A stretch of 64,000 bases of DNA from Minisyncoccia bacterium (lineage in GTDB: Bacteria; Patescibacteriota; Minisyncoccia; Phycocordibacterales; UBA918): NCBI GenBank assembly GCA_041742075.1, contig JBGSJJ010000015.1, positions 65,132-129,131 of the forward strand, written 5' to 3'. Below the pieces are notes generated by a model. The model was not told where the DNA came from. It did not search any database and saw only the letters and a list, made by a program, of their open reading frames with translations. The stretch's first letter is position 1. Each line of letters starts with the position of its first letter. Shown here one piece after another: positions 1 to 21,482 of this stretch. A program made the position numbers and the translations under genes.

Positions 1-1217
1 CATGAGCCCGCTAAAGCCATGTTAGTACCGGTTGCAACTCCATTAACAAATAGACGTACGCTGTTATCTTCCACTTCTCCCGTAGCGCCACTATTTCTTT
101 GTTTATCGACAAAAGCTTGCACGCCTACAATGGTTGCATTTTCAGGTATATCAAATTGCAATCCATCAACTACTAAATAATTAGACGCTGTAGTACCGGT
201 TGTAGTGACGTTCGGAGTTGAACTGTCATTCGTAGTTCCATTTTGATAGCCAGACCAAGCAATACTTCCATACGAAGTATTGTTGGTACTCGAAAGAGCT
301 TGGGAAACCTGAGCCTTAAGTGAACCGACTGACGGTGTATGGGCTGACGGAATAGCAATCGTATGTGAAACCCAGTTTTCTGTTGCACTCGTATACGTAC
401 CCGGGTCTTCAGAAGAAGCGGTAGCAAACTTTTGCGCAACATTCGTTGAAGCGCCGGCAGCAGTGTTTGCCGCAATAGAGTTGAGATTACTGTAGCCCGA
501 AGGAAGAGCAGAGGCAACCACCTGCGCATCACCACTTCGAGTTGCCAAGAAAAGATAAGGTCGGACTGCGTCCATAGTAATAAGAGGCGGGTCAGTATTT
601 GTGGACGAATTGTTCGTTACCGTAGCAAAAGGCGCGCCGGCGTTTTGGATACGGTAGGCAATATATGACGCCTCTTCAGCAAACGGTATAGTGACTGTAG
701 CTGTGTCTACACCTGTCGCAAATTTCCAGAACACCGCTCCTGTAGCCTGTACCCCATCTTTTTCGTCACCAAGCTTGCCCCAACCATTACTATCTATATT
801 TAGTTCCCTTCTTCCATCCATTGAAAATACAACCAGGAGCAAATCCCCCGCAGTAACACCAGAAGGTAGTGTAATTGCGTGATCAGTGAGGTCACCTGTA
901 GACCGCCCAGAAGAAGTCGACATGATAGTTGGGTAACTATCATCTATACCGACCCCATGCCAGGTACTTTCTGTAGACTTTTTAAACTGAAGTGACGGCC
1001 TGGTGGTGGTGCCAGTACCGGTGACGTCTATCAAACCTCGAAAACGGAGTGTCTCATCTAGACCCCACACGATGTTTGCGTCTTGGGGAGCTAGCCAGGT
1101 TGCGCCAGATTCTGATCCATCATCAAAGCGGAAACGGAAACCTTCTTGGGCGACTTGCGCATCTGCCAAAGATACAAACAACCCGAAGAAAAGTACGGTA
1201 AAAGCCACGATACTCAT
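1..1217 (-). CDS. Secreted protein of unknown function, 5' part only (C-terminus lies beyond window start). Not in the supplied ORF track because no stop codon falls in the window.
   Basis: Manual translation of the reverse strand from ATG (complement of 1215-1217) gives an uninterrupted frame to position 1: MSIVAFTVLFFGLFVSLADAQVAQEGFRFRFDDGSESGATWLAPQDANIVWGLDETLRFRGLIDVTGTGTTTRPSLQFKK... It has an N-terminal signal-peptide-like hydrophobic segment, is Ser/Thr/Gly-rich, and sits 95 nt downstream of the giant gene on the same strand. Confidence 0.55.
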   Translation of the reverse strand, partial: MSIVAFTVLFFGLFVSLADAQVAQEGFRFRFDDGSESGATWLAPQDANIVWGLDETLRFRGLIDVTGTGTTTRPSLQFKKSTESTWHGVGIDDSYPTIMSTSSGRSTGDLTDHAITLPSGVTAGDLLLVVFSMDGRRELNIDSNGWGKLGDEKDGVQATGAVFWKFATGVDTATVTIPFAEEASYIAYRIQNAGAPFATVTNNSSTNTDPPLITMDAVRPYLFLATRSGDAQVVASALPSGYSNLNSIAANTAAGASTNVAQKFATASSEDPGTYTSATENWVSHTIAIPSAHTPSVGSLKAQVSQALSSTNNTSYGSIAWSGYQNGTTNDSSTPNVTTTGTTASNYLVVDGLQFDIPENATIVGVQAFVDKQRNSGATGEVEDNSVRLFVNGVATGTNMALAGS

Positions 1218-1312: not shown

Positions 1313-4300
1313 CTAGCTGGTCGGTTCTACTGCTTCTGATTCTGGTGACGCTTCAGGCTCTGGTTCGACTGGTTCAGGCTTCTCTACTACTGGTTCCGGT
1401 TCTGGAGTGGGTGGGGGCGTTTCTTCTACGACTGGATCTTCTGGTATATCTTCCGTCCCGCTACCTCCGCTTCCTCTCGACCCTCCTTCCCCACCACCTT
1501 CGCTTACTTCTGGCTCTGGTGCTGGAGCTGGTGGTGGCGTGCTTGGGCCGGTACCCGAACCGTTGCCATTAAGGAGTCGGCGCAAATCGTCAGCGGTCAC
1601 ACACACGTCTTCGATACAGAGTTGTTCGGTTTCCACAATCTCCGTCTTGATACCCGTCACGGTAAGGACCCCATCAACAAAGTTTTGGGCGAGCGTCTTT
1701 AGGCGATCCCAGAGTGACTCACCTGCTCCACCAAAGACGATGTCGGTTGAGGTTGAAGTGAGTTCACGCATTATAGTCGCAGTCCGCGCGTCATCGAAGC
1801 GACCAAGCTTTACAAACATGAGCACAGTACCAACCTGTACTTGCTGTCCGTTAACCGTAACTGACTTGGCTCTCACATTTTGGAGCACTTCGATATCTTC
1901 TAGAGTTTCTTCAGCTTCTTCTTCAAGCTCTTCGGCGATTTCAGTGTCCGGCACAACTGGCTCAGTATTCTTCACGCAGTTCGTAGCGCCAGCAGAACCA
2001 ACTGCACCACCACCACCATAGCTACAGCCATCTTGAGCTTTCGGGTCAACTGGTGTCTCAGGAATATCTGGCAAACGAATATCGTCACCAAACTGATTCA
2101 CGAACCCTTCTGAGTAGGCATACTCACCCGTAAAGTCTTCAAGCGCTGAACCAACCACCACATCGCCTGGTTCAGCTTTTTTGCCCACGCCTGGAATACT
2201 GGAAAGCGCGATTTTGTCACCCACCTTGATAGCACCATTTTCGGTTGAAAGCTTAATTGGCACACGACCGGTAAGCGCAATCGGGTAGCCCGACTCGCGT
2301 GAGCGGAGTGAGGTGTCGTCAAACCCAAGGGTCATACCTGGCTTAGTTGAAACCACACCAATGATTTTTTCAGTTGTCTCTGTTGAAGCGCGACCGACAC
2401 TAATACCACCATCTGCATACACAATCTCGCCAGGTTCGAGGTTCTCACGACTGAAGTACATTTCAGCTAAGTCAGAGTTACCAACCGTAGCGGAAACCGA
2501 AGTGATTCGTCCCGTTGTCGACGCGTTACAACTTCCGTCATTATCGACACAGAGTCCTCCGCGACCAATCTGGAGACCTGCCATAGTGGTGCCGTTACCA
2601 ATGGTGGTTGTACCGTAACTGCTGACCGTGAAGACGCCTGAACCAACGTTCTGAAGATTAATGAAGTTACCTGCGTATGAGCCCGTATCGTTACCAAAGT
2701 TCATCAAGAGACCAGAGCCAGTGAAGGTTGAGTCTTCTTGGTAGAGTGCCATGAGGGCCGCACTCGTGATAGTGCGTGAGTAGCCTCGAATCGCGTTACC
2801 TTGAATGGTACCTTCGGTTTCTGCATACACACCAGCTGGCTCATAGAGGTCGCCAGCGTCTCCCCGAGTGGTAGCGCGGAGTCCAAAGGTCCGTCCGAAG
2901 CCGGAGAGCGCCGTGCTTTCTCCAAGGGTATTGGTACCTCTATCCACCTGCACTTCAAGACCACGAATGACGTTTCCTCTACTAGTACTGTCAGCCAAAC
3001 GCAGGAGATTACCCACAATAGTGGTCGTCGCACTACCGGTGTGCACGATTTCTGTCTGGTTACCAAACTGCACGCCACCACCACTGCTGTTTGCGAGACC
3101 GAGGTACTGCATAATGCCTGCTGTTGTGGTACCAGTGACGCCAGTCGCTTGAATTGAAAGCTTACTATTTGGCGTGGTAGTTCCGATACCCATGTTACCC
3201 GCTGCAGTCACGGTAAGAAGTCTGGCGTTTGTAGACGAAGCCAGCGCAAAGATGTCAGTTGTGCCAGCAGTACCAGTTACGGTAAGTTTCGCGGTTGGAG
3301 TTGTTGATCCAATACCAAGATTGCCGAGATAATCAAGTCGCATCCGTTCTGCTGGCACTGCATTATTTGCCGTAGAGAAAACTAATGCACCTTTGTATGC
3401 GCCATTTGTGATGTCAGTAATTATTCCAGATAAACCAGCCACGTTAGTCATGCCACCAGTCGTGCGGTTTGCACCGAAAAGAAGTTGAGTTCCGTTATTA
3501 TTTGTAGCTACTTCGTCATTTTGTAGTCGAGCCAAATCAAGTGTACCAACAGCACTGTTTATAATATCTAGCTTATACGCAGGGGCAGCTGTTGAATCTA
3601 GAAAACTACCAATTCCAAGATTTCCAGTATCACGCTCAACACGAAGTAATGGCAAAGAACTCGCCTGACTAAGTATTTCAAAGCCATTTCTAGTACCATC
3701 AAACCTACTGTTATAGCGAAGAATAATACCATCGCCTCCAGTCTCCTCTAAAACTACCTGTGCGCTTCCATTACTTGATGTATTTGAAAGTCTCAATTCA
3801 ACTGGATTAGACGTGCCATTTGCCGCAGAGAGATGTAATAACGCAGTTGAGTCCGGGTTAGCTGTACCAATACCAACTGCACCTGAACTTTTTACAGTAA
3901 GCAGTCGAGAGTTGGTTGACGAAGCTATTGCAAAGATATCGCCAGCCCCAGCAGCTCCAGTAATAGCTAATCGAGCCGTCGGCGTACTAGTACCAATACC
4001 TAGATTAGTCCCAGTGAATACAAAATCTGTACTGTCAGTAAGTGCTGTCGCACCACTGTTCGTATACATAATACGGTTAGCTGTGAAGGAAGAAGGTGTG
4101 TCGGTAAGCCCAAGGAACGTACCATTACCGAGACCAAGCGTACTCGTCGCCACCCAACGAGTACTGGTACCAGTAGTTTGAAGCACCATACCTAATGTAC
4201 CGGTGGCGTTGTTGTTGTCACGAAGTGCCCCTTGGAGGTAGGTGGTGCCAGAAAGCGTGAAGCCGAGGGTAGAAGAAGCGTTCACGAGGGTGGTGTTGGT

Positions 4301-7300
4301 GAGCATTGAGGAAGACGCGCGGACAAAGCCACCACTGGTTCCTTGTTCGTCACTAAGGAGGGCGGCTAGACCATTGGAATCGGTGAAGGCTGCTGAGGTG
4401 CCGAGGGTTGAGGTAGCCACCCACCTCGTACTCGTGCCGGTGGTCTGAAGCACCATACCTAATGTACCGGTGGCGTTCACTCCGTCACGGAAGCCGCCGG
4501 TGAGACGGAAGTCGCCGGCTACTGATAGTTTGCTGGCTGGGGAGCTGGTGCCGATGCCGATGTTGCCACTACTTAAGGTGGTGCCGGTACCGTCGACACC
4601 AGTACCAAAGATGAGGTTACCGATGTTGAGTACGTCGTCTTGAGTGGTGGAGAAGGCATCGATATCGTAACCAAGGAAGATACCTCGATCTACCCCTGTG
4701 GCGTTATCAGCAACACGATATCCAATCGCGATAGTACCAGTACCGTTGTTTACTGAAAGAGCATCCCTGCCAAGTGCAATATTTCTCAAACCAGTTGAGT
4801 TTGTAAACAAGGTGTAGCTACCGATACCGATGTTGTCTATACCAGTAGTGTTAGCAGCCAAAGATTGAATACCAAGCGCTGTATTATTTGAGCCGGTAGT
4901 GTTTTGTGTAAGTGTTAGTTCACCGAGCGCGATGTTATAAGAACCACTTGTGTTTTCATCAAGAGCAAATGGTCCTATGGCCACATTATTGAGGCCACTC
5001 ATGAGTGCGGTTGAAGAGCCAAATAACGCATTTTGTCCGATGGCAGTATTATTCGTACCGGTTCCTAAGAAACGAAGTGCCCCATCACCAATCGCGTAAT
5101 TGTAGGTACCGGTGGTAATAGAGGTAGATGACGCGCCGGCGAAGAAGAAGTTATTGCGTGTTGTCGAGCCGGTTAGCACTGGAGTAGTACCCATGAAGTA
5201 ACCAGCTGAGGCGGTGCTTGAGCCATTAATTGCAAGTGTGCCGAAAACAGTTGGCGCAGTAAGGATTGACGACGATGCGCGGACGAAGCCACCACTAGTT
5301 CCCTGTTCGTCACTAAGGAGGGCGGCGAGGCCGTTTGAATCACTGAAAGCGGCTGAAGCGCCGAGGGTTGAAGTAGCGACCCAGCGGGTTGAGGTGCCAG
5401 TCGTTTGGAGAATCATCCCCAGCGTACCCCTGCTACCAGAGTTATCACGAAGACCACCGGTTAGGGTGAGGTCGGTGAGGGTTGAAGTGCCGGTCACAGC
5501 AAGGGTGCCGGTTGCGGTTAAGTTGCCGCCGAAGTAGCCACTGCCAGCGACGGTGAGTTTGCTGCTTGGAGTGGTGGTACCAATACCAACCGCACCATCA
5601 TTAGCAATCACAAATGGGCTCGTGTCACCGAGTACATCATTTACCTGAAAGCTTATATCACTCGTTTCGTTAAGAACGAACAAAGCTGCGCCAGCAGTGA
5701 TTGAACTCGTACCCACAGCGACATCTCCATTAGCTTCAACCGCAAATGATGCTTGCCACGTCGCTCCAGAGTCGTTGCTTCTTCCGATACCAAATACAGA
5801 CTCACTACCTGAAGCATCACCAAACTGAAGAGCGTGACGATTTCCACCTTCTAACGTAGCCAGAGTGAAGCGTCGAGCAGAATTAGCATCGGTTTCCATA
5901 CCGAGCGCGTACGGGTCGTTATTTTCCGCTACGCTATTGTTAAATGTCATAAGCAAATTCTGATTTCCTACCGTCAGTAGGTACGGTGGTGTGCTGGTGC
6001 CAATCCCCACATTGCCATTACCATTAATTCGTATCCGTTCCGTGTTATTAGTGCCAAGAATAAGAGCGTTATTGTTTACGTTTCCGACTACCAGTGGAAA
6101 GTCTCGACCGGCATCTTGTGCAATAAGAGCGGCTGTGCCAGAGCTAAAACCAAAGAGTGTTCCGCCTGTCTGCCCAATATAAATATCGGCCGTGTTGCCA
6201 AAGTTTCGTATGTATTGAAAACCACTCGTGGTACCATCGCCCACCTGCAATTGGTAAGCAGGATTTGCAGTACCAATACCAACATTTCCTGTCGCACTAT
6301 CGACAAACAGCGTCGGTGTTGTCCCTGTCCCCACCCTGAAGTTCCCCCACACATCAAGCTTACTCGCTGGCGTCGTAGTACCAATACCTACATCACCACC
6401 ACTGGTGACAGTAAATAGACGTGCATTTGTGGACGAAGCTACCGCAAAGATGTCACTCGTGCCAGCAGTGCCTGTTATGGCGAGCTTGGCTGATGGGGTT
6501 GATGAGCCGATGCCGATGTTGCCAAATCGATTTATAGTCATTCGCTGTTCCTCAGCACCAGTCCAGAACTGAATCGATCCTTCTGGGTCACTTGGACCAC
6601 TTGGATTACCAGCCACAAAAAGAATATTTCCTCGCTGGTCCGATAATTCATTAAAATCATTACCCCGAGCGAGGAAATAGGCACCCTGGCTAGAATTATT
6701 TGAACCTCTACCAGCGGCAAAAAAGCCGATACTAGCATTGACTGTCCCAGAATTTTCTGATGAGAGGTAGAACAGATTGTCAGTCGCCTGAGAGCCTCCA
6801 TTTAATAAAATATTATTGGTAAATTCAGTTAAACCATTAAAAGTAGTTTTGCTCGTAGAAACATCTGTAAAGAGTGCTGGCACCGTACCAGTCCCCACGC
6901 GGAAGTTCCCCCACACATCGAGCTTTGCATTGCTGTGAGCAGTAGTTGAGCCGATAGCTAAGCTATCACTGAGTGACGTGAGGTATGAAGTAGCGCCACC
7001 ATCAGTGAAGAGTGACCCGCTTCCAAACCCAAGCGTTGAGGTAGCTACCCACCTCGTACTCGTGCCGGTAGTCTGGAGCACCATACCAAGGGTACCCGTC
7101 GCGTTGTTGTTGTCTCGGAGGGCCCCTTGGAGGTAGGTGGTGCCAGAGAGGGTGAAGCCAAGAGTAGAGGAGGCGTTGATGAGCGTAGTGTTGGTGAGCA
7201 TGGAAGAAGACGCGCGGACGAAGCCACCACTCGTGCCTTGTTCATCAGACAGAAGCGCAGCGAGTTCTGATGAGTTAATGAACTGAGCTGAAAGACCGAG

Positions 7301-9619
7301 GGATGAAGTCGCAATTTGATTCCAGGTATTGCCTGCTCCACCAATGAGGAGTTGGTTCACGCCAGTGGTTGAGGTACCGGTGCCTCCACGGGTTGGGGCT
7401 AAGATACCGATGGTATCTGAAAGCGCGATGCCGAGTGTACTGGTAGCAATCCACCGTGTAGAGGTACCGGTAGTTTGCAGCACCATACCTAAAGTACCAG
7501 TGGCGTTGTTGTTATCTCGGAGGGCACCGTTTAGGTACGTCACTCCAGCCAAGGTGAGGTTGGTTGATGAGGCGTTGAAGAGTGTTGGGGCGGTGAGGAA
7601 AGAGGAGGAAGCGCGGACGAAGCCACCTGAGGTGCCTTGTTCGTCGGTAAGAGCAAGAGCGAAGTTGTCTGATGATGGTGTTGCGAGGAAGGTCGCAACG
7701 TTGGTACCAAGACCTGAGACACCAGTACTAATCGGGAGACCAGTGGCGTTCGTGAGCACACCAGAGATTGGGGTGCCAAGAGCTGGAGCGATTAAGGTTG
7801 GACTGGTGAGGGTAGAGGAAGACGCACGAACGAAGCCACCTGAGGTACCGTTCTCATCAGAGAGGAGGGCGGCGAGTTGGTCGGAGTTGGTGAAGGCTAG
7901 TGAGGTTCCTAACGTTGAAGTAGCCACCCACTGAGTACTGGTGCCGGTGGTTTGGAGGATCATCCCGAGGGTACCACCTGAGTTAGAGGCGTCACGGAAG
8001 CGACCGGTAAGGGTGAGGTCAGAGAGAGTACTCGTGCCAGTAATTGATAGGGTGCCGGTTGCAATCACGTTACCAGCGACAGTAAGCAGAGCTGACGGTG
8101 AAGTGGTACCGATACCGACGTTGCCATTTGTCATCACGGTCATGCGCGACACACCGTTCGTGAACAGACGTAAGTCGTGGTTACTAATCGTGCCAATGAA
8201 ACCTTGCGAGGTGTCTGAACGTAATTCGGTAACTACATTGTTGGTAGTATTGATAGTCCTCAGTCCAGCTTCAGCAGAAGTTCCTTCTAGATGCAGAAGG
8301 CGTGCTGGTGAAGTCGTACCGATACCGAGTCTCGTCCCGGTAAATACAAACGTGTCACTATCAGTGAGTCCAGTTGCACCACTGTTTGTAAACGGAATCC
8401 GGTTGGCGTTGTACGCACTTGGTGTATCACTCAATCCCAAAAAGGTGTTGTTGCCAAAGCCAAGGGTAGAGGTACTCGTCCAGGTAGGCTGACCGCCCGA
8501 GACAGCAAGCACCTGACCAGCTGTACCAATACTAAGCGCAGCCGGTGTGTCAATTGCCGACGCGTAAAAGAGTGAACCACTCGGCATCGACGGCATGTCC
8601 GCTAAGTCAAACAAAGACGATCCCGAGAGGTCAGACAAGTAGGCATTGTCGAGAGCACAAATAGTACCGTTACAAGAAAAATCACCGAAGTCTAAGTTTG
8701 CCAGGTTGGTTGGTCCAATTGCATTTGCCGTTATTTCTTGTCCGGTGAGTGACAGGTAATCTTCTCCGGCTAAAGTGACAGCATCATGCCCAGCTGAAAA
8801 CCCAAGTGAGCTGGTCGCTACCCACTGGGTGCTTGTACCAGTTGTGAGAAGCACCATCCCAAGCGTACCGCGACTGCTGGCGTTGTCTCTAAGGCCACCC
8901 GTAAGCGTGAGGTCGGAGAGCGTGGTAGTACCCGTGACAGCCAAGGTACCCGTTGCGGATACGCTACCCCCGAAGTAGCTGTTTCCACTGACGGTGAGTC
9001 TCGCTGACGGAGTACTTGAGCCGATACCGACGTTGCCCGAGTTAGTTATCGTAAACAAATTGGTCACTCCTGAAAATAGTTCAAGTAAGTTACCGGCTCC
9101 ATTTTGAATCAAGGTGAGAAGTGCATTTGAACTTGTGGTAGCGAGTGTACCAGCCTGGTCACTGCGTAAGAAACTGGTCGTAGCTAAGCCTCCAAACTGC
9201 TCAGCGTTTTGCGCCTCAAACGCGGCTGGTACCGTTCCGAGAATCTTTCGTGGCGACATTTCGGCATCGGCCTCGATACTCACACCAAGGTAAAGAGTTT
9301 GCGTAAAGTCGACTCCTGCGCTCGCAAAAGAGGTGGTACTGCCGAGCATAACTGAGAAGAGTCCATTTGTAACCGTCACTTCGTTTGTACCATCGAGCGT
9401 CTCTGTCCAAATAGGTGAACCAGTTGAGGCAACGGTGTAGAGTGAGAATTCCATCTCATAGGTGCCGTTTGGAACCGCCACACCAGCGTTTGTGGTGAGC
9501 TTTCCTTGGTAGTTGATAGTCGGACTTTGCGCCAGTACTTGGGTCGATACAAACAGACCACAGGCAAAAACAATCAGGGTAGCGATCGTAAGTTGCAGTT
9601 GTAGCCGGAAGTGAATCAT
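1313..9619 (-). CDS. Giant (2768 aa) secreted/surface repeat protein with a signal peptide, an N-VGIGTTxP-x-KL-type beta-helical (tail-fibre-like) motif array, seven near-identical ~33-aa repeats, and a Pro/Glu-rich C-terminal tail.
   Basis: Single uninterrupted 8.3-kb ORF. N-terminus MIHFRLQLQLTIATLIVFACGLFVSTQVLAQ is signal-peptide like. The motif GxLRDNxxxxGTLGMVLQTTGTSTRWVATSTLG occurs 7 times and AALLSDEQGTSGGFVRASSS about 6 times. GNVGIGTTSPSxKLxV motifs recur. C-terminus is ...STPPPAPAPEPEVSEGGGEGG...EPEPVVEKPEPVEPEPE. Composition is dominated by T, S, G, A, N. Confidence 0.8.
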   Translation of the reverse strand: MIHFRLQLQLTIATLIVFACGLFVSTQVLAQSPTINYQGKLTTNAGVAVPNGTYEMEFSLYTVASTGSPIWTETLDGTNEVTVTNGLFSVMLGSTTSFASAGVDFTQTLYLGVSIEADAEMSPRKILGTVPAAFEAQNAEQFGGLATTSFLRSDQAGTLATTSSNALLTLIQNGAGNLLELFSGVTNLFTITNSGNVGIGSSTPSARLTVSGNSYFGGSVSATGTLAVTGTTTLSDLTLTGGLRDNASSRGTLGMVLLTTGTSTQWVATSSLGFSAGHDAVTLAGEDYLSLTGQEITANAIGPTNLANLDFGDFSCNGTICALDNAYLSDLSGSSLFDLADMPSMPSGSLFYASAIDTPAALSIGTAGQVLAVSGGQPTWTSTSTLGFGNNTFLGLSDTPSAYNANRIPFTNSGATGLTDSDTFVFTGTRLGIGTTSPARLLHLEGTSAEAGLRTINTTNNVVTELRSDTSQGFIGTISNHDLRLFTNGVSRMTVMTNGNVGIGTTSPSALLTVAGNVIATGTLSITGTSTLSDLTLTGRFRDASNSGGTLGMILQTTGTSTQWVATSTLGTSLAFTNSDQLAALLSDENGTSGGFVRASSSTLTSPTLIAPALGTPISGVLTNATGLPISTGVSGLGTNVATFLATPSSDNFALALTDEQGTSGGFVRASSSFLTAPTLFNASSTNLTLAGVTYLNGALRDNNNATGTLGMVLQTTGTSTRWIATSTLGIALSDTIGILAPTRGGTGTSTTGVNQLLIGGAGNTWNQIATSSLGLSAQFINSSELAALLSDEQGTSGGFVRASSSMLTNTTLINASSTLGFTLSGTTYLQGALRDNNNATGTLGMVLQTTGTSTRWVATSTLGFGSGSLFTDGGATSYLTSLSDSLAIGSTTAHSNAKLDVWGNFRVGTGTVPALFTDVSTSKTTFNGLTEFTNNILLNGGSQATDNLFYLSSENSGTVNASIGFFAAGRGSNNSSQGAYFLARGNDFNELSDQRGNILFVAGNPSGPSDPEGSIQFWTGAEEQRMTINRFGNIGIGSSTPSAKLAITGTAGTSDIFAVASSTNARLFTVTSGGDVGIGTTTPASKLDVWGNFRVGTGTTPTLFVDSATGNVGIGTANPAYQLQVGDGTTSGFQYIRNFGNTADIYIGQTGGTLFGFSSGTAALIAQDAGRDFPLVVGNVNNNALILGTNNTERIRINGNGNVGIGTSTPPYLLTVGNQNLLMTFNNSVAENNDPYALGMETDANSARRFTLATLEGGNRHALQFGDASGSESVFGIGRSNDSGATWQASFAVEANGDVAVGTSSITAGAALFVLNETSDISFQVNDVLGDTSPFVIANDGAVGIGTTTPSSKLTVAGSGYFGGNLTATGTLAVTGTSTLTDLTLTGGLRDNSGSRGTLGMILQTTGTSTRWVATSTLGASAAFSDSNGLAALLSDEQGTSGGFVRASSSILTAPTVFGTLAINGSSTASAGYFMGTTPVLTGSTTRNNFFFAGASSTSITTGTYNYAIGDGALRFLGTGTNNTAIGQNALFGSSTALMSGLNNVAIGPFALDENTSGSYNIALGELTLTQNTTGSNNTALGIQSLAANTTGIDNIGIGSYTLFTNSTGLRNIALGRDALSVNNGTGTIAIGYRVADNATGVDRGIFLGYDIDAFSTTQDDVLNIGNLIFGTGVDGTGTTLSSGNIGIGTSSPASKLSVAGDFRLTGGFRDGVNATGTLGMVLQTTGTSTRWVATSTLGTSAAFTDSNGLAALLSDEQGTSGGFVRASSSMLTNTTLVNASSTLGFTLSGTTYLQGALRDNNNATGTLGMVLQTTGTSTRWVATSTLGLGNGTFLGLTDTPSSFTANRIMYTNSGATALTDSTDFVFTGTNLGIGTSTPTARLAITGAAGAGDIFAIASSTNSRLLTVKSSGAVGIGTANPDSTALLHLSAANGTSNPVELRLSNTSSNGSAQVVLEETGGDGIILRYNSRFDGTRNGFEILSQASSLPLLRVERDTGNLGIGSFLDSTAAPAYKLDIINSAVGTLDLARLQNDEVATNNNGTQLLFGANRTTGGMTNVAGLSGIITDITNGAYKGALVFSTANNAVPAERMRLDYLGNLGIGSTTPTAKLTVTGTAGTTDIFALASSTNARLLTVTAAGNMGIGTTTPNSKLSIQATGVTGTTTAGIMQYLGLANSSGGGVQFGNQTEIVHTGSATTTIVGNLLRLADSTSRGNVIRGLEVQVDRGTNTLGESTALSGFGRTFGLRATTRGDAGDLYEPAGVYAETEGTIQGNAIRGYSRTITSAALMALYQEDSTFTGSGLLMNFGNDTGSYAGNFINLQNVGSGVFTVSSYGTTTIGNGTTMAGLQIGRGGLCVDNDGSCNASTTGRITSVSATVGNSDLAEMYFSRENLEPGEIVYADGGISVGRASTETTEKIIGVVSTKPGMTLGFDDTSLRSRESGYPIALTGRVPIKLSTENGAIKVGDKIALSSIPGVGKKAEPGDVVVGSALEDFTGEYAYSEGFVNQFGDDIRLPDIPETPVDPKAQDGCSYGGGGAVGSAGATNCVKNTEPVVPDTEIAEELEEEAEETLEDIEVLQNVRAKSVTVNGQQVQVGTVLMFVKLGRFDDARTATIMRELTSTSTDIVFGGAGESLWDRLKTLAQNFVDGVLTVTGIKTEIVETEQLCIEDVCVTADDLRRLLNGNGSGTGPSTPPPAPAPEPEVSEGGGEGGSRGSGGSGTEDIPEDPVVEETPPPTPEPEPVVEKPEPVEPEPEASPESEAVEPTS
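4150..8900 (-). repeat. Intragenic long direct DNA repeats within the giant gene (units of ~100-300 bp, several segments of 30 nt or more identical).
   Basis: For example, gaagcaccatacctaatgtaccggtggcgtt is identical at 4185-4215 and 4449-4479. Related copies lie near 5395, 7060, 7450, 7925 and 8810. gacgcgcggacgaagccaccac-type copies lie near 4310, 5270, 7200, 7610 and 7810. The repeats also produce the repeated antisense ORF translations in the track (ARTKPP(L/E)VPCSS...). Confidence 0.8.
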
Positions 9620-10407: not shown

Positions 10408-10950
10408 ATACGATATTGCTAATAATTATATAATCATTCTGGTCAAAAAAGCCTGAAAAAACGGCCAAATCTGGGGACAAAAAAGTACCACTTTTTGAAA
10501 AAATTTTTACCTCTTTAATCCGGAGTACGTGAAGGTGCCGAGCATAAAAAAATCACCCCCTCAGTAGCTAACCGAATTGGTGGAAACCTCAACTTGAGAA
10601 CCAACCAGGCTCAGAGGGATTTACTGCCAGAACTCACCCCAGACAACAGTTCATCCTTCCAAGTCTACCCGGGTCTTCTCTTTCATTTTTCACTCCCTGC
10701 ACACACTCTGGGGCCACACAGAGAGAGTAAAAAATCGCATTATCGTCCAGGTACATCACATGCGCCCCAAAGGGCGCAGAAGATACCCAAACTATGAGGA
10801 TTAGGCCGGTGTAGCTAAGCAAACCAGACTAATTTTCTATACACTACTCAAGAGAAACAAGACTTCCGACCGACCACATAACCAAGCGGGACCAGCACCG
10901 CCTCCTTCTAACAATTATCTCTTCTTACACCGTACGTAGTTAATACTCGT

Positions 10951-18135: not shown

Positions 18136-19167
18136 TTAAAGACACGTCACTTCACGTTCGAGTACGATGCCGGTCGCTTCAAAAGTTCGCTCGGCAAGCG
18201 TATTTGAAAACGCGAGGACCTCTTTTGCAGTCGCACCTTCATACGCTACCAACACCAGTGCTTGCCCCTCAAACGTACCAACAGAGCCAATTCTTTCACC
18301 CTTTGCGTTTAGTATCTTGTCAAAAATATAGCCAACGGGAACTTTTATTTGTGTGGCCGAAAGCGGATACATCGGTAGTTCAGGATACTTTCTCTCCAGC
18401 ATAAGCGCTTCGGTACTTGAAATAATTGCGTTCTTAAAAAACGAACCAGCCGTACCTACCACGGTCCAGTCAGGAAACTTCTTTGAACGTATTTCAATTA
18501 CGGCTTCACGAATCGCGAGCAGACTTGGCTCTTTGGTATCTTTAAAATATTCTTCTAAATCTTTGTACGTTAGTTTCCTCTCTGGAATTTTTGATAGTTC
18601 AAAAGTTACTTCGGTCACAATATATCTTCCAGGCTCTTGTTTAAAAACTGAATCACGGTAACCGAAATTACATTCCTCCACTACTAAGAGTCGGTAACAC
18701 TCTTCTAGCGTATCAAAAACCCGTACCTGGGAAATGAGGCTTTGTATTTCGACCCCATATGCACCAACGTTTTGCACCGGGGTCGCTCCCACACTTCCAG
18801 GTATATGCGATAAATTCTCAAGTCCCCACCACCCTTCCTCAACACATCTTTTGATAAACTCATCAAACACTTCGCCAGCACCGACCACTACCTTAATAAC
18901 CTCCTCTGTTGTACCTACTACCTCTACCCCTTTGATAGCTATGTGGATGAGTAAACCACCAACACCCTCGTCAGAGACGAGGGTGTTTGAGCCCCCACCG
19001 AGGATTCGTATCGGTAGGTTGTTTTTTTTCGCATAGGTACGAGCACTCGTGAGTTCAGCTTCCGTTGTAACCCGCACGTAGTGTTCTGCCTTTCCTCCCA
19101 CCTTGAGCGTAGTAAGAGGAGCTAAGGGGACGTTCTGTTCGATCGTAATGTGCATTATGGAGTACAC
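18136..19167 (-). CDS. murB: UDP-N-acetylenolpyruvoylglucosamine reductase MurB
   Basis: ...LAPLTTLKVGGKAEHYVRVTTEAELTSARTYAKKNNLPIRILGGGSNTLVSDEGVGGLLIHI... is the FAD-binding MurB signature. C-terminal domain present. Confidence 0.88.
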   Translation of the reverse strand: MYSIMHITIEQNVPLAPLTTLKVGGKAEHYVRVTTEAELTSARTYAKKNNLPIRILGGGSNTLVSDEGVGGLLIHIAIKGVEVVGTTEEVIKVVVGAGEVFDEFIKRCVEEGWWGLENLSHIPGSVGATPVQNVGAYGVEIQSLISQVRVFDTLEECYRLLVVEECNFGYRDSVFKQEPGRYIVTEVTFELSKIPERKLTYKDLEEYFKDTKEPSLLAIREAVIEIRSKKFPDWTVVGTAGSFFKNAIISSTEALMLERKYPELPMYPLSATQIKVPVGYIFDKILNAKGERIGSVGTFEGQALVLVAYEGATAKEVLAFSNTLAERTFEATGIVLEREVTCL

Positions 19168-21341
19168 GGCGTGTCAGGCGCCTTACCAGTTTCAATGTTC
19201 GAGATAATACACTTCGCGTTTGGTGCAAGTCCTGGTGCAGCGATACTACCTTCTTTGAGTACTTCGATAGCGCGATCATTATTCTTAAGTTCATAGTAGA
19301 TGAACGCAAGACTTGCCCAATTTTGTGCGTCTGCTGGCAGAGCCTTCACGCGCAACTCATACAATTCAGCCAACCAACCTAAGTCACCTTTTTGCTGAAC
19401 GGTACCGACAGCAAAGTCATTCTGAGCAAAAGCTAATCGTTCTTCTTCAGTCGTGAGCAGGGCTTTTGCCTTCGGTACATCTTCGAGATTGGCTACCATC
19501 GCCGCATACAACACTCTCGCCTGTACATACCCCGGCACTCGGTCATGCGCTTCTTTGAAGAACGCGAGCGCGCCAGCCGGGTTGTTCATTTGAAGTTCAA
19601 CCACTCCTTGCTCAATCATCATGGCAGGCTTATCAGGTGAAAGCCCTCGCGCGATTGCGGCCTGCTCCTTGGCTTGCGGAAGCGCACCAATGTTTCGGTA
19701 GTAGTTCGAGAGGAAGATATGAAGCCGAGCATCGCCTGGTTTTTCGTCAATCATGCGCAACAACTCCAGTTCGGCTCGCATCACAAACGGATCTTTTTCT
19801 TCGGCTGGCACGCTGGGGTCACGCGCTATGTTCATGGCCATCTGGGCCAACTGCTCGACTATTTCTTGATCTCCAAAGCCTTTACGTCCAATCGCTCGAT
19901 CAAACGCTTCGAGACGTTCAATCACCGTTGGAGCGCGGAGTGCTTCAATAATGTCTCCCGCGGCCAGGTAGGAAGGGATGTTTACAAAATACACACCGGC
20001 TACACAGAGTACCAGCACCACCGGTGTTGCGACCTGCAGTACCAGAGTTTGGCTAACTTTAAACTTCTCTACCTTAGGGAGGGTTCGCGCGACCCGTGCA
20101 TGGACTAGACCAAGGAGAGTTCCATAAAAGATGTAACTAATAATGTTGTCAAACACCACTACGTTGTGCAAAAGGTAACCTGTCAGAAGCCCGAGAATAA
20201 TTGCTCGTTCAAGTACATTGAAGTCAGTGTCGACTTCCTTTCGGCGGAGCGGTATCCAAAACAGGTAATACAGAATTGCTCCCATAATACTAAAGTAGGA
20301 TAGGAAGCCCACGACTCCGCCAGCAATCAGCCAGTCAAGGAAAATATTGTGTGTTCTATCGAACCACTGCTCTTGGTTGTAGAGTTCAGCTTTGTAGTTT
20401 TGGTTAAACACAAAGTTAAAGTTGCCGTGTCCCCAACCGAGCACCGGTCGCTCTTTGACGCCATCAAGCGCCATCCCCCAGATAGTTCCGCGCACCACGA
20501 GGTCTGACTTAAGGTCTATGTTTGCAATACGAGCGAGTGAACCGTTACTTTGGATAAAATCTGCTTCCCGAACTGAGTAGAGTGTCCCAGCTAAAACCAC
20601 CAGCGCAATAATCCCGCCAATTGCGAGCTTTCGAAACTGTGGAAAGCGAGCCCCGAAAATCGCAACATACGCCACACTGACGACTGCTCCACCAGCCAGA
20701 CCCAAGAACGTACCGCGGGTACCAGTCTGGAGTAGTGTGGCCAAAAAGAGTAGCGAAATCAATATGTACGCCCCGCGGTACCACCAGTCTTTTGCTCGAA
20801 CATAGAGTAAAGCGGTGAAGAAGATATGGAAAAGCATGTATACCGCCATGTACGCTGAGTTACCAAGCGTACTGTCAATACGGGCAATACCGCTATTTTG
20901 CATCTGTATATATCCCTTTACGGCGACAAAGGCTGCCACCGCAATAGTAGTATGAAGAAAGATAGACCAGGTCCGAGCGGTAAACGCCATACTCCCGAGC
21001 ACCACAAAGTACATCCACAAGTGAATAATAGTGACAATACCATCCATTCGCTCGTAGTTACTCCAGAAACTAGTGGCTGGACTCTTCCCGAGAACAGCTG
21101 ACAGTGAAATCAAGGCGATAAAAACGGTAAAGGTTACCAGTATCCAAGAAAATTTTGGCCGGTAGCGGGCATCGATGAGAGCAAGGAGAATCCAAGCCGA
21201 AAACACAATCTCAACTATGATGCGGAAAAAGAAGTTTTTTCCGGTTATAAATGGAAAAAAGAGACTATCGGTAACTAAAAGTGGTAAAAAAAGTACGAGG
21301 AACAAACCACCGTACACAAGGCCTTGTAACATATCTTTCAT
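19155..21341 (-). CDS. Polytopic membrane protein with a Wzy_C (O-antigen ligase / PglL-like) domain fused to C-terminal TPR repeats. Likely start is the Met at 21341; the track extends to 21434.
   Basis: About 12 TM helices in the N-terminal 430 aa (…GTRGTFLGLAGGAVVSVAYVAIFG… region typical of Wzy_C) followed by a soluble TPR-like region (LAFIYYELKNNDRAIEVLKEG...). Overlaps murB by 13 nt. Confidence 0.7.
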   Translation of the reverse strand: MKDMLQGLVYGGLFLVLFLPLLVTDSLFFPFITGKNFFFRIIVEIVFSAWILLALIDARYRPKFSWILVTFTVFIALISLSAVLGKSPATSFWSNYERMDGIVTIIHLWMYFVVLGSMAFTARTWSIFLHTTIAVAAFVAVKGYIQMQNSGIARIDSTLGNSAYMAVYMLFHIFFTALLYVRAKDWWYRGAYILISLLFLATLLQTGTRGTFLGLAGGAVVSVAYVAIFGARFPQFRKLAIGGIIALVVLAGTLYSVREADFIQSNGSLARIANIDLKSDLVVRGTIWGMALDGVKERPVLGWGHGNFNFVFNQNYKAELYNQEQWFDRTHNIFLDWLIAGGVVGFLSYFSIMGAILYYLFWIPLRRKEVDTDFNVLERAIILGLLTGYLLHNVVVFDNIISYIFYGTLLGLVHARVARTLPKVEKFKVSQTLVLQVATPVVLVLCVAGVYFVNIPSYLAAGDIIEALRAPTVIERLEAFDRAIGRKGFGDQEIVEQLAQMAMNIARDPSVPAEEKDPFVMRAELELLRMIDEKPGDARLHIFLSNYYRNIGALPQAKEQAAIARGLSPDKPAMMIEQGVVELQMNNPAGALAFFKEAHDRVPGYVQARVLYAAMVANLEDVPKAKALLTTEEERLAFAQNDFAVGTVQQKGDLGWLAELYELRVKALPADAQNWASLAFIYYELKNNDRAIEVLKEGSIAAPGLAPNAKCIISNIETGKAPDTPCTP

Positions 21342-21482
21342 AATGCTGAAAACTATACCATACCGAACGGACGCTCGGCGACGTTGACGAGAGGAGTGAA
21401 GAGCGTTGCAATATATAGCGTCTTGAGTCGGCATATGTAGAGTACAAAAACAGGCCCCAAGGTGGGGCCTGTCAAAATGTAC

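Follow-up and report, generated by a model that had tools for sequence, protein, structure and literature searches.

The described systems that lie closest to the gene considered here are the mosaic adhesive trimer (MAT) fibres of Bdellovibrio bacteriovorus (e.g. Bd2133; PDB 8OND; Caulton et al. 2024) and the pre-neck appendage protein gp12 of the Bacillus phage phi29 (PDB 3GQ7, 3SUC). A MAT fibre begins with a signal peptide that is followed by a beta-rich N-terminal domain; this domain has no homolog in the PDB and has been placed next to the cell surface, and the fibres fall into S74 and non-S74 kinds (PMC10769870). In gp12, the mature chain ends at residue 691 (PMC6542822), the C-terminal domain serves as an autochaperone, which is removed once the protein has folded (PMC3357383, PMC4690869) and in the absence of which the chains aggregate (PMC3357383), and the body of the chaperone is beta-stranded (PMC4690869). 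Phage fibres and spikes of the S74 type (viz. K1F endosialidase and T5 pb1) are trimeric beta-fibres folded by a self-cutting C-terminal chaperone (PMC4690869). We describe here a gene of 2768 codons (hereafter the fibre gene, and its product the fibre) that resembles these systems in several respects and is located in a 64,000 nucleotide (nt) stretch of a Minisyncoccia bacterium genome (contig JBGSJJ010000015.1, positions 65,132 to 129,131 of the forward strand). This whole stretch is referred to below as the window, and all positions are those of the window unless another locus is named.

We lean towards the interpretation that the product of this gene is a Sec-exported surface fibre of the phage tail fibre type, which is probably a homotrimer, carries a self-cleaving C-terminal chaperone and possibly serves in attachment to host cells. 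We infer its trimerisation, self-cleavage, anchored end, adhesion and glycosylation; the observations on which this interpretation is based are described below, and the coordinates of the different features are summarized in Table 1.

The open reading frame (ORF) of the fibre gene starts with ATG, contains no internal stops and encodes a product of 2768 amino acids (aa), the size that had been stated in a preliminary description of the window. A pseudogene was considered and rejected, because the ORF is intact and both of its end modules align in full with homologs. The sole hydrophobic segment of the protein is formed by aa 4–31 and has V-L-A↓Q-S at its end, and in homologs an AXA↓Q/A pattern is likewise found directly ahead of a conserved INYQGKL sequence; these characteristics fit a Sec-type signal peptide, the presence of which had also been proposed earlier. 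The final 79 aa contain 27% Pro and 25% Asp+Glu, and neither a transmembrane (TM) or other hydrophobic segment nor a terminal LPXTG is present at the C-terminus (strings of the LAxTG type are internal repeat residues only), in agreement with the earlier account of a Pro/Glu-rich end devoid of a sortase motif or a C-terminal TM segment. A sortase-anchored protein of the Gram-positive type was rejected on account of this absence of a C-terminal LPXTG and hydrophobic segment. The same account had called the tail spacer-like; its Pro/Glu character was confirmed, but rather than a spacer it is the last part of a module of ~386 aa that is conserved at the C-terminus. The tails of homologs are acidic, poor in Lys/Arg and mostly Pro/Glu-rich like that of the fibre, although the sequence itself is not conserved. 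Searches of the whole protein against Pfam, NCBIfam and PHROGs yielded no domain above threshold, and the hallmarks of S74, YadA/Hep_Hag and LPXTG proteins are all absent (Pfam and sequence). The general description of a secreted, repeat-rich and fibre-like surface protein is supported by our analyses.

The N-terminal beta-sandwich of the fibre is matched by the NCBIfam profile NF053851 (Bdello_MAT_N) with an E value of 1.8e-8 and a score of 34.3 bits over profile positions 16–82 of 162 (curated cut-off, 60 bits), and the same profile matches all 21 of the 21 aligned relatives (best E 5.9e-9). The AlphaFold2 (AF2) model of this domain is a beta-sandwich with a predicted local distance difference test score (pLDDT) of ~90 over the first ~100 modelled residues, for which no significant fold match was found in the PDB. 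Judged by sequence, the N-terminal domain of the fibre is a remote homolog of the MAT N-terminal domain, which similarly follows upon a signal peptide. The resemblance extends to the shaft, where the GN[VL]GIG..P..KL motif is common to the MAT fibres and the fibre, and to the mode of life, as each is a phage-fibre-like protein of the cell surface in bacteria that live on other bacteria. Both superfamilies have members carrying a self-cleaving C-terminal chaperone, although this is of the S74 type in MAT fibres and G2-like in the fibre; in addition, the fibre is 2–3 times longer, and the organism, a Patescibacterium, has, as far as is known, no outer membrane. Among relatives with the same N-terminal domain, those without the C-terminal module of the fibre often end in a Pfam S74 chaperone domain instead. 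The occurrence of S74 and G2-like ends among patescibacterial relatives parallels the division of MAT fibres into S74 and non-S74 kinds. The fibre itself is without S74: its C-terminus gave no match to PF13884 and contains neither an SDxRxK nor an SDxxxK motif.

The evidence for a chaperone comes from the C-terminal module. By profile alignment (hhalign), the sequence S2382-D-L-A-E2386 of the fibre is placed upon S691-D-F-A-E695 of phi29 gp12 (probability 56%, E 1e-4), i.e. upon the S↓D-x-A-E motif at the gp12 cleavage site, where Asp692 and Glu695 presumably have catalytic roles. All 19 aligned modules have S, D, L, A and E at these positions without exception, and of the 120 proteins listed, 84 contain a single copy of the pattern [NSH]SDLAE. 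The segment that follows (the core) is related to Peptidase_G2, the domain of gp12: Pfam PF11962 scores 18.8 bits against the segment and 15.5 bits against the module (gathering cut-off, 25 bits; gp12 itself scores 325 bits), and it matches 8 of 19 family members at E<=0.1 (best E 1.4e-6). The closest detectable homologs of the DLAE core are virion proteins of jumbo phages, viz. the Sinorhizobium phage Phosso (XYS97449.1), the Pseudomonas phage PA5oct (gp359) and the Agrobacterium phage Atu_ph07, the other parts of which are unrelated to the fibre. With the extreme C-terminus of the Phosso protein, the core aligns at a probability of 98.6% and E 1.3e-15 (hhalign), whereas tblastn matches it to jumbo-phage virion proteins with 32–38% identity over ~110 aa; the identity is 32% to the PA5oct virion structural protein, which has been verified by mass spectrometry. 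These phage domains are themselves uncharacterised and not recognised by Pfam; the domain is the last in the proteins concerned, as is expected for a C-terminal chaperone. A structure prediction of the C-terminal 565 aa, close to the last 600 aa for which the preliminary description had suggested one, gave a confident, beta-stranded model for the core (aa ~2385–2505, pLDDT mostly 75–90) and a poor one for the whole. In a Foldseek search of the viral models in BFVD, 20 matches were obtained at E<=1e-3, among which was a 'preneck appendage protein' (E 1.5e-7). In gp12 and, by prediction, in the fibre, a beta-stranded domain follows the site, C-terminal to a beta-structured fibre; the removal of this domain is described for gp12 and predicted for the fibre, and gp12 is part of a virion, whereas the fibre is cellular and Sec-exported.

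Other parts of the C-terminal region are less readily placed. The domain ahead of the predicted cleavage site contains an invariant pair of cysteines (C2357/C2364), also occurs in other proteins without the domain that follows it, and was not folded by AF2 (pLDDT 24–43). For the extension after the core (aa 2501–2689), no homolog outside the fibre family was found in Pfam or among PDB sequences, and a search of the C-terminal module against PHROGs recovered an unannotated family only. Three Cys pairs in all are invariant in the 19 aligned modules, which fits an extracytoplasmic protein. On these comparisons, the module after the predicted cleavage site is probably an intramolecular chaperone that cuts itself off, in which case it would not belong to the mature fibre.

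Several observations weigh against this interpretation. The Bdello_MAT_N score of 34 bits is under its 60-bit cut-off, the Peptidase_G2 match of 18.8 bits is under its cut-off of 25 bits, and the hhalign probability to gp12 is just 56%. As a whole, the C-terminal module was modelled poorly by AF2 (pLDDT 47), gp12 was not among the PDB matches of a Foldseek search (which were headed by phage capsid decoration proteins, E 4e-3), and a search of PDB sequences with the profile of the module found nothing. Further, ~270 residues after the core have no counterpart in gp12, with the acidic Pro/Glu tail unaccounted for. The tips of MAT fibres are variable, whereas the C-terminal ~620 aa of the fibre rank with the best-conserved parts of its family and it is the middle that varies. 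Since the scores are below the curated thresholds and one point of architecture does not agree, we do not count the fibre as a member of the named families.

In the mechanism that we propose, the fibre chain would be exported by the Sec system, and the C-terminal module (aa 2383–2768) would nucleate and register the folding of the beta-fibre from its C-terminal end. Self-cleavage between Ser2382 and Asp2383 would free an acidic fragment of ~40 kDa and leave a mature chain of ~238 kDa (aa 31–2382). The MAT-related N-terminal beta-sandwich may hold the fibre on the cell envelope; the shaft would project the conserved distal domain (aa 2141–2382), and shaft and domain could contact host cells or other surfaces. 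In Bd2133, 370 aa extend over 142 Å (PMC10769870), from which a length of ~90 nm may be extrapolated for the fibre.

The shaft of the fibre is a mosaic of interspersed modules. PHROG 9942 ('tail fiber protein') matches aa 1795–2130 with E 1.7e-10, and three stretches of the shaft align with Bd2133 (8OND) through the GN[VL]GIG..P..KL motif (whole-sequence E 1.2e-3), which corroborates the link to phage tail fibres and beta-helical fibres that had been drawn earlier from this motif. The G-x-[VILM]-G-I-G-[TS] motif is present in 12 copies, 10 of which have the ..P..KL extension, in line with the GNVGIGTTSPxxKL-like sequences that had been reported to recur; the MAT shaft motif V-G-x-x-x-x-P-x-x-x-L is thereby also present. 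Like the trimeric autotransporters of the YadA type, the fibre is long and repeat-rich, and aa 1470–1660 resemble a YadA head by eye; no Pfam family, however, matches aa 1440–1700 even at E<=10, none of the features of the YadA type (Hep_Hag, the YadA anchor, a C-terminal beta-barrel) was matched in the fibre, and the organism has, as far as is known, no outer membrane to hold such an anchor. An autotransporter was rejected, as these defining features are absent. Two relatives of the fibre carry a label of the trimeric autotransporter type given by JGI.

The preliminary description had further pictured the gene as composed of near-identical modules. A self-comparison of the gene, which had been suggested as a check, confirmed its repetitiveness; the modules are interspersed, a tandem array was not seen, and Tandem Repeats Finder reported no arrays except two tiny low-complexity rows. 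The LRD-type unit, [LF]RD....GTLGM[IV]LQTTGTST[QR]W[IV]ATS[ST]LG, is present in the seven copies that had been claimed, with a core that we measure as 31 aa, while the AALLSDEQGTSGGFVRASSS-type unit, for which about six copies had been given, occurs five times. The near-identity holds at the protein level but not at the DNA level: pairs of units with 97–100% protein identity are 76–81% identical in DNA, about half of the identical residues in these pairs being encoded by different codons, and the DNA repeat families of the gene are 60–82% identical overall. By the Nei-Gojobori method, synonymous divergence (dS) between repeat copies is 1.0–2.3, i.e. near saturation, and nonsynonymous divergence (dN) is 0.05–0.25, with dN/dS of ~0.03–0.2. 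Identical DNA blocks of at least 30 nt had been reported in the plural, with 4185–4215 and 4449–4479 as an example; these two blocks are out of register (10 of 31 positions match as written), and a single true pair of such length exists (32 nt, starting at 4179 and 4446), followed by exact repeats of 26, 23, 23 and 20 nt, with the 32-nt and 26-nt repeats being in frame. In 200 re-encodings of the protein that drew on the codon usage of the gene itself, the longest repeat averaged 17.8 nt and reached at most 29 nt (32 nt observed), and repeated 20-mers numbered 0.84 on average compared with 29 observed. In this excess of DNA identity, some trace of the shared ancestry of the copies, or else of short conversion tracts between them, is retained. 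For the unit subtypes LRDNNNATG, FRDGVNATG and LRDNSGSRG, the counterparts in the closest ortholog of the fibre gene (locus L002) are as close as their own paralogs, which implies that the subtypes predate the split of the two lineages. This correspondence between genomes and the near-saturated dS indicate that the repeats are old and have been kept mainly by selection at the protein level.

These data bear directly on a different explanation, namely that the protein is a variable adhesin of the contingency type, in which near-identical DNA repeats drive frequent recombination, either slipped-strand or homologous, and length differs between cells and strains. The length and composition of the locus are indeed variable: in five other genomes the gene at the same syntenic locus encodes 1617, 1858, 1884, 3101 and 3109 aa (2768 aa here), the order of the modules in the closest ortholog differs from that in the window, this ortholog carries 17 exact repeats of at least 100 nt (with four of its 93-nt units identical), and exact repeats of 77–161 nt are present in the other orthologs. 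The in-frame 32-nt and 26-nt repeats and a DNA identity above that of the random-codon null also speak for such a mechanism. The L002 sequence, however, is a metagenome assembly, and its exact repeats reflect either duplication or conversion that took place recently in the L002 lineage or an artefact of assembly. In the window gene itself, the DNA identity of the repeats (59–81%) and the single exact tract of at least 30 nt indicate a gene copy that is not very recombination-prone; the high dS, the low dN/dS and the lack of tandem arrays point in the same direction, and the closeness of the unit subtypes of the window gene to their L002 counterparts argues against concerted evolution in the lineage of the window gene. 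We therefore regard a contingency-type adhesin as unlikely. The earlier claim of length variation driven by recombination is supported for the family, with its differing lengths and shuffled modules, but not well supported for the DNA repeats of this gene; on these comparisons, the substrates for homologous recombination in the window gene are marginal within a plastic family. The diverged repeats here and the long exact repeats in L002 offer a natural experiment on length change.

Pro-rich C-terminal segments often span the wall in Gram-positive surface proteins, and the protein might instead be a non-cleaved, possibly monomeric component associated with the wall or an S-layer, which retains its C-terminal module and tail, e.g. 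as a wall-spanning cell-proximal end. Besides this general resemblance, the conservation of the Pro/Glu character of the tail throughout the family, the length of the C-terminal module (~386 aa versus the 163 residues, 692–854, that are cleaved from gp12) and the sub-threshold Peptidase_G2 match would suit such a protein. We nonetheless consider it improbable, since a C-terminal TM segment, LPXTG and any known wall-binding domain are all absent, the invariant S-DLAE aligns exactly with a known cleavage site, the homologous phage domains are at the extreme C-terminus of virion proteins, and the domain with kinship to what is presumed to anchor MAT fibres is the N-terminal one. A tailspike-like enzyme, e.g. 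one that depolymerises the envelope or polysaccharide of host cells in place of a passive adhesin, is suggested by the pectate-lyase-like beta-helix of phi29 gp12, which has the same type of chaperone, and by several family members in whose variable middle domains of the Beta_helix/NosD, LVIVD or lactonase type are found; no catalytic or beta-helix family was detected in the fibre (Pfam, NCBIfam, PDB sequences), and the chances of an enzymatic fibre appear slim. For the repeats as well as for the C-terminal domain, the nearest relatives that have been characterised are phage proteins, which would speak for the tail fibre gene of a prophage or tailocin rather than a gene for a cellular surface protein. 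The product has a predicted Sec-type signal peptide, however, and the neighbours of the gene are SecA, Obg, GatB and MurB, with a gene order that six genomes share and with no phage genes nearby: the succession SecA, a small holin_4_2-like gene, Obg, GatB, two genes for proteins with a helix-turn-helix (HTH) and a TM segment (HTH-TM genes) and the fibre gene is also present in five related genomes. Relative to the closest ortholog, moreover, the N-terminal 200 aa (72.5% identical) and the C-terminal 660 aa (73%) have diverged at about the rate of GatB (74.5%; Obg, 90%). The conserved order of housekeeping genes and the GatB-like divergence indicate a vertically inherited locus of the core genome and not a prophage, the latter being a highly improbable source of this gene.

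The fibre family is large, uncharacterised and restricted to Patescibacteria. A search of 5.8 billion proteins identified 622 relatives at E<=1e-5, those with a name being from Kaiserbacteria, Nomurabacteria, Paceibacteria, Minisyncoccia, Wolfebacteria, Lloydbacteria or the 'Patescibacteria group', and with lengths of 1530–4801 aa among the matches listed. The profile of the C-terminal module recovered 982 clusters at E<=1e-30 from 1.84 billion representatives, and the two halves of this module are also found separately in other proteins. A scan of one genome per species for two peptide patterns from the C-terminal module, the reach of which extends to fairly close relatives only, retrieved 80 loci, all of them from metagenome-assembled genomes of Patescibacteria save one contig binned as Thermoplasmatota. 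This contig (JBMYRW010000057.1; L081), the sole non-patescibacterial match of the 80, carries the chaperone-like core with 42% identity and is probably mis-binned. Conservation along the fibre is concentrated at its ends (~aa 1–280 and ~aa 2100–2750), and the middle is poorly covered by homologs: the N-terminal domain is conserved in 109 of 119 homologs and the full C-terminal module in 66 of 119 (44–72% identity), while the variable middle of other members harbours extra Pfam domains, including LVIVD, Beta_helix/NosD, EPTP and lactonase. Searches for this family in Patescibacteria yielded nothing relevant within the searchable literature.

Host recognition by the ultra-small Patescibacteria (Candidate Phyla Radiation) is largely uncharacterised, and most of their large surface proteins are annotated as 'hypothetical'. 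One such giant protein now has a testable predicted architecture, in which an anchor-like domain at the N-terminus is followed by a mosaic shaft, a conserved distal domain and a chaperone that would cleave itself off, and it is linked to two systems that have been studied experimentally, viz. the MAT fibres of Bdellovibrio and the autochaperone of the phi29 appendage. The family comprises ~1000 sequence clusters at a conserved chromosomal locus, and its conserved modules provide handles by which such fibres may be found and compared in metagenomes. A tentative extension, which we regard as possible without expecting it, is that in many Patescibacteria a self-cleaving trimeric fibre of phage derivation, encoded at this core locus, is the main organelle of host attachment, with an N-terminal domain that it and the fibres by which Bdellovibrio recognises prey would owe to common ancestry. 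If so, the distal domain conserved in the clade might recognise a widespread feature of host envelopes, the shuffled shaft and inserted domains would tune reach or specificity, and the adjoining HTH-TM proteins could be the membrane anchor or the regulator of the fibre.

Table 1. Features of the fibre gene and of its surroundings (window positions, except for the last line; aa numbers refer to the fibre).
Feature	Position	Strand	Basis or remarks
Whole fibre gene	1313..9619	minus	2768 codons and stop; intact ORF; N- and C-terminal modules aligned with homologs over their full length
Predicted Sec-type signal peptide, aa 1-30, cleavage VLA↓QS	9530..9619	minus	Sole hydrophobic segment and AXA↓Q/A conserved in homologs
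N-terminal beta-sandwich, aa 31-135, presumed cell-proximal anchor	9215..9529	minus	NF053851 match, AF2, conserved in 109/119
Mosaic shaft, aa 136-2140, interspersed modules, poorly conserved and shuffled	3200..9214	minus	Homolog coverage, self-comparison
Seven 31-aa 'LRD..GTLGMVLQTTGTSTRWVATSTLG' units, span	4133..8893	minus	Protein identity 71-100%, DNA identity 59-81%, dS 1.0-2.3 between units
'LRD..GTLGMVLQTTGTSTRWVATSTLG' units, individually	8801-8893, 7907-7999, 7430-7522, 7028-7120, 5360-5452, 4400-4492, 4133-4225	minus	
Five 'AALLSDEQGTSGGFVRASSS' units, span	4307..7873	minus	Pattern count
'AALLSDEQGTSGGFVRASSS' units, individually	7814-7873, 7601-7660, 7202-7261, 5267-5326, 4307-4366	minus	
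N-x-x-A-[IL]-G short repeats, aa 1470-1660, YadA-head-like by eye	4640..5212	minus	Sequence, self-similarity
Exact DNA repeat, 32 nt, sole one of at least 30 nt	4179-4210 and 4446-4477		267 nt (89 codons) apart
Pre-cleavage domain, aa 2141-2382, presumed distal end of mature fibre	2474..3199	minus	~50-72% identity to homologs
Predicted autocleavage site Ser2382↓Asp2383, in invariant S-D-L-A-E	2471..2476	minus	hhalign to gp12
Intramolecular-chaperone-like core, aa 2383-2500, Peptidase_G2-related	2120..2473	minus	Pfam, hhalign, tblastn, AF2, BFVD
Family-specific extension, aa 2501-2689	1553..2119	minus	Invariant C2532/C2548 and C2668/C2673, acidic helix
Pro/Glu-rich acidic tail, aa 2690-2768	1316..1552	minus	Composition; character kept in homologs, sequence not
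Upstream HTH-TM gene, 260 aa	9625..10407	minus	HTH-like N-terminus, one TM helix, extracytoplasmic C-terminus
Gap between HTH-TM genes, 543 nt, non-coding	10408-10950		Unusually long
Second HTH-TM gene, 329 aa	10951-11940	minus	Co-oriented; HTH_17-like motif, one TM helix, extracytoplasmic C-terminal part
Small ORF, 112 aa	14629-14967	minus	Conserved block; site of ~110-aa Phage_holin_4_2 gene between SecA and Obg in relatives
Wzy_C (O-antigen ligase-like) and TPR fusion	19155-21434	minus	Next to MurB, conserved block
Glycan biosynthesis cluster	~26800-50000		GC 0.34-0.45 versus 0.46-0.51 elsewhere
Closest ortholog P0002	L002 6285-15614		17 exact intragenic repeats of at least 100 nt, up to 554 nt

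The neighbours of the fibre gene in the window are genes for GatB, Obg, SecA, MurB and a protein in which Wzy_C is fused to TPR, and in the one related locus that reaches that far (L003) the order Wzy_C+TPR / MurB / SecA is the same. The stop of the 260-aa HTH-TM gene is 5 nt from the ATG of the fibre gene and both genes are co-oriented; in five related genomes, too, the HTH-TM pair immediately precedes the fibre gene, and in L003 it is split into HTH and TM genes. These proteins could be either a membrane-bound regulator or an anchor of the fibre. Within the gap that separates the two HTH-TM genes, a single promoter-like site (10943–10914, minus strand) was found, which is weak and no better than those in shuffled sequence, and scans for promoters and terminators around the fibre gene were at or below the expectation from shuffling.

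The preliminary description had also proposed the Ser/Thr-rich protein as a plausible O-glycosylation substrate of an adjacent glycan locus. Such a locus is real and comprises genes for epimerases/dehydratases, nucleotidyltransferases, a Wzx-type flippase, a DegT aminotransferase, GT2 and a thiamine pyrophosphate (TPP)-dependent enzyme, and it may have been acquired horizontally. It is not adjacent, however, as it starts ~17 kb off, beyond the housekeeping genes, and the Ser+Thr content of the shaft (26%) is usual for beta-structured fibres. The Wzy_C family includes protein O-oligosaccharyltransferases, and the Wzy_C+TPR protein is, as a lead at most, the candidate enzyme should the fibre be glycosylated.

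On the other side of the fibre gene, an ORF that starts at 1217 (minus strand, window 1–1217, at least 405 aa) has a signal-peptide-like beginning, MSIVAFTVLFFGLFVSLADA↓Q..., and exits through the left end of the window. In relatives, the fibre gene is followed by large genes of the secreted type, encoding 3660, 2665 (after a small NYN gene), 2040 and 1343 aa, and in L003 by a gene for a 402-aa Laminin_G_3 protein.

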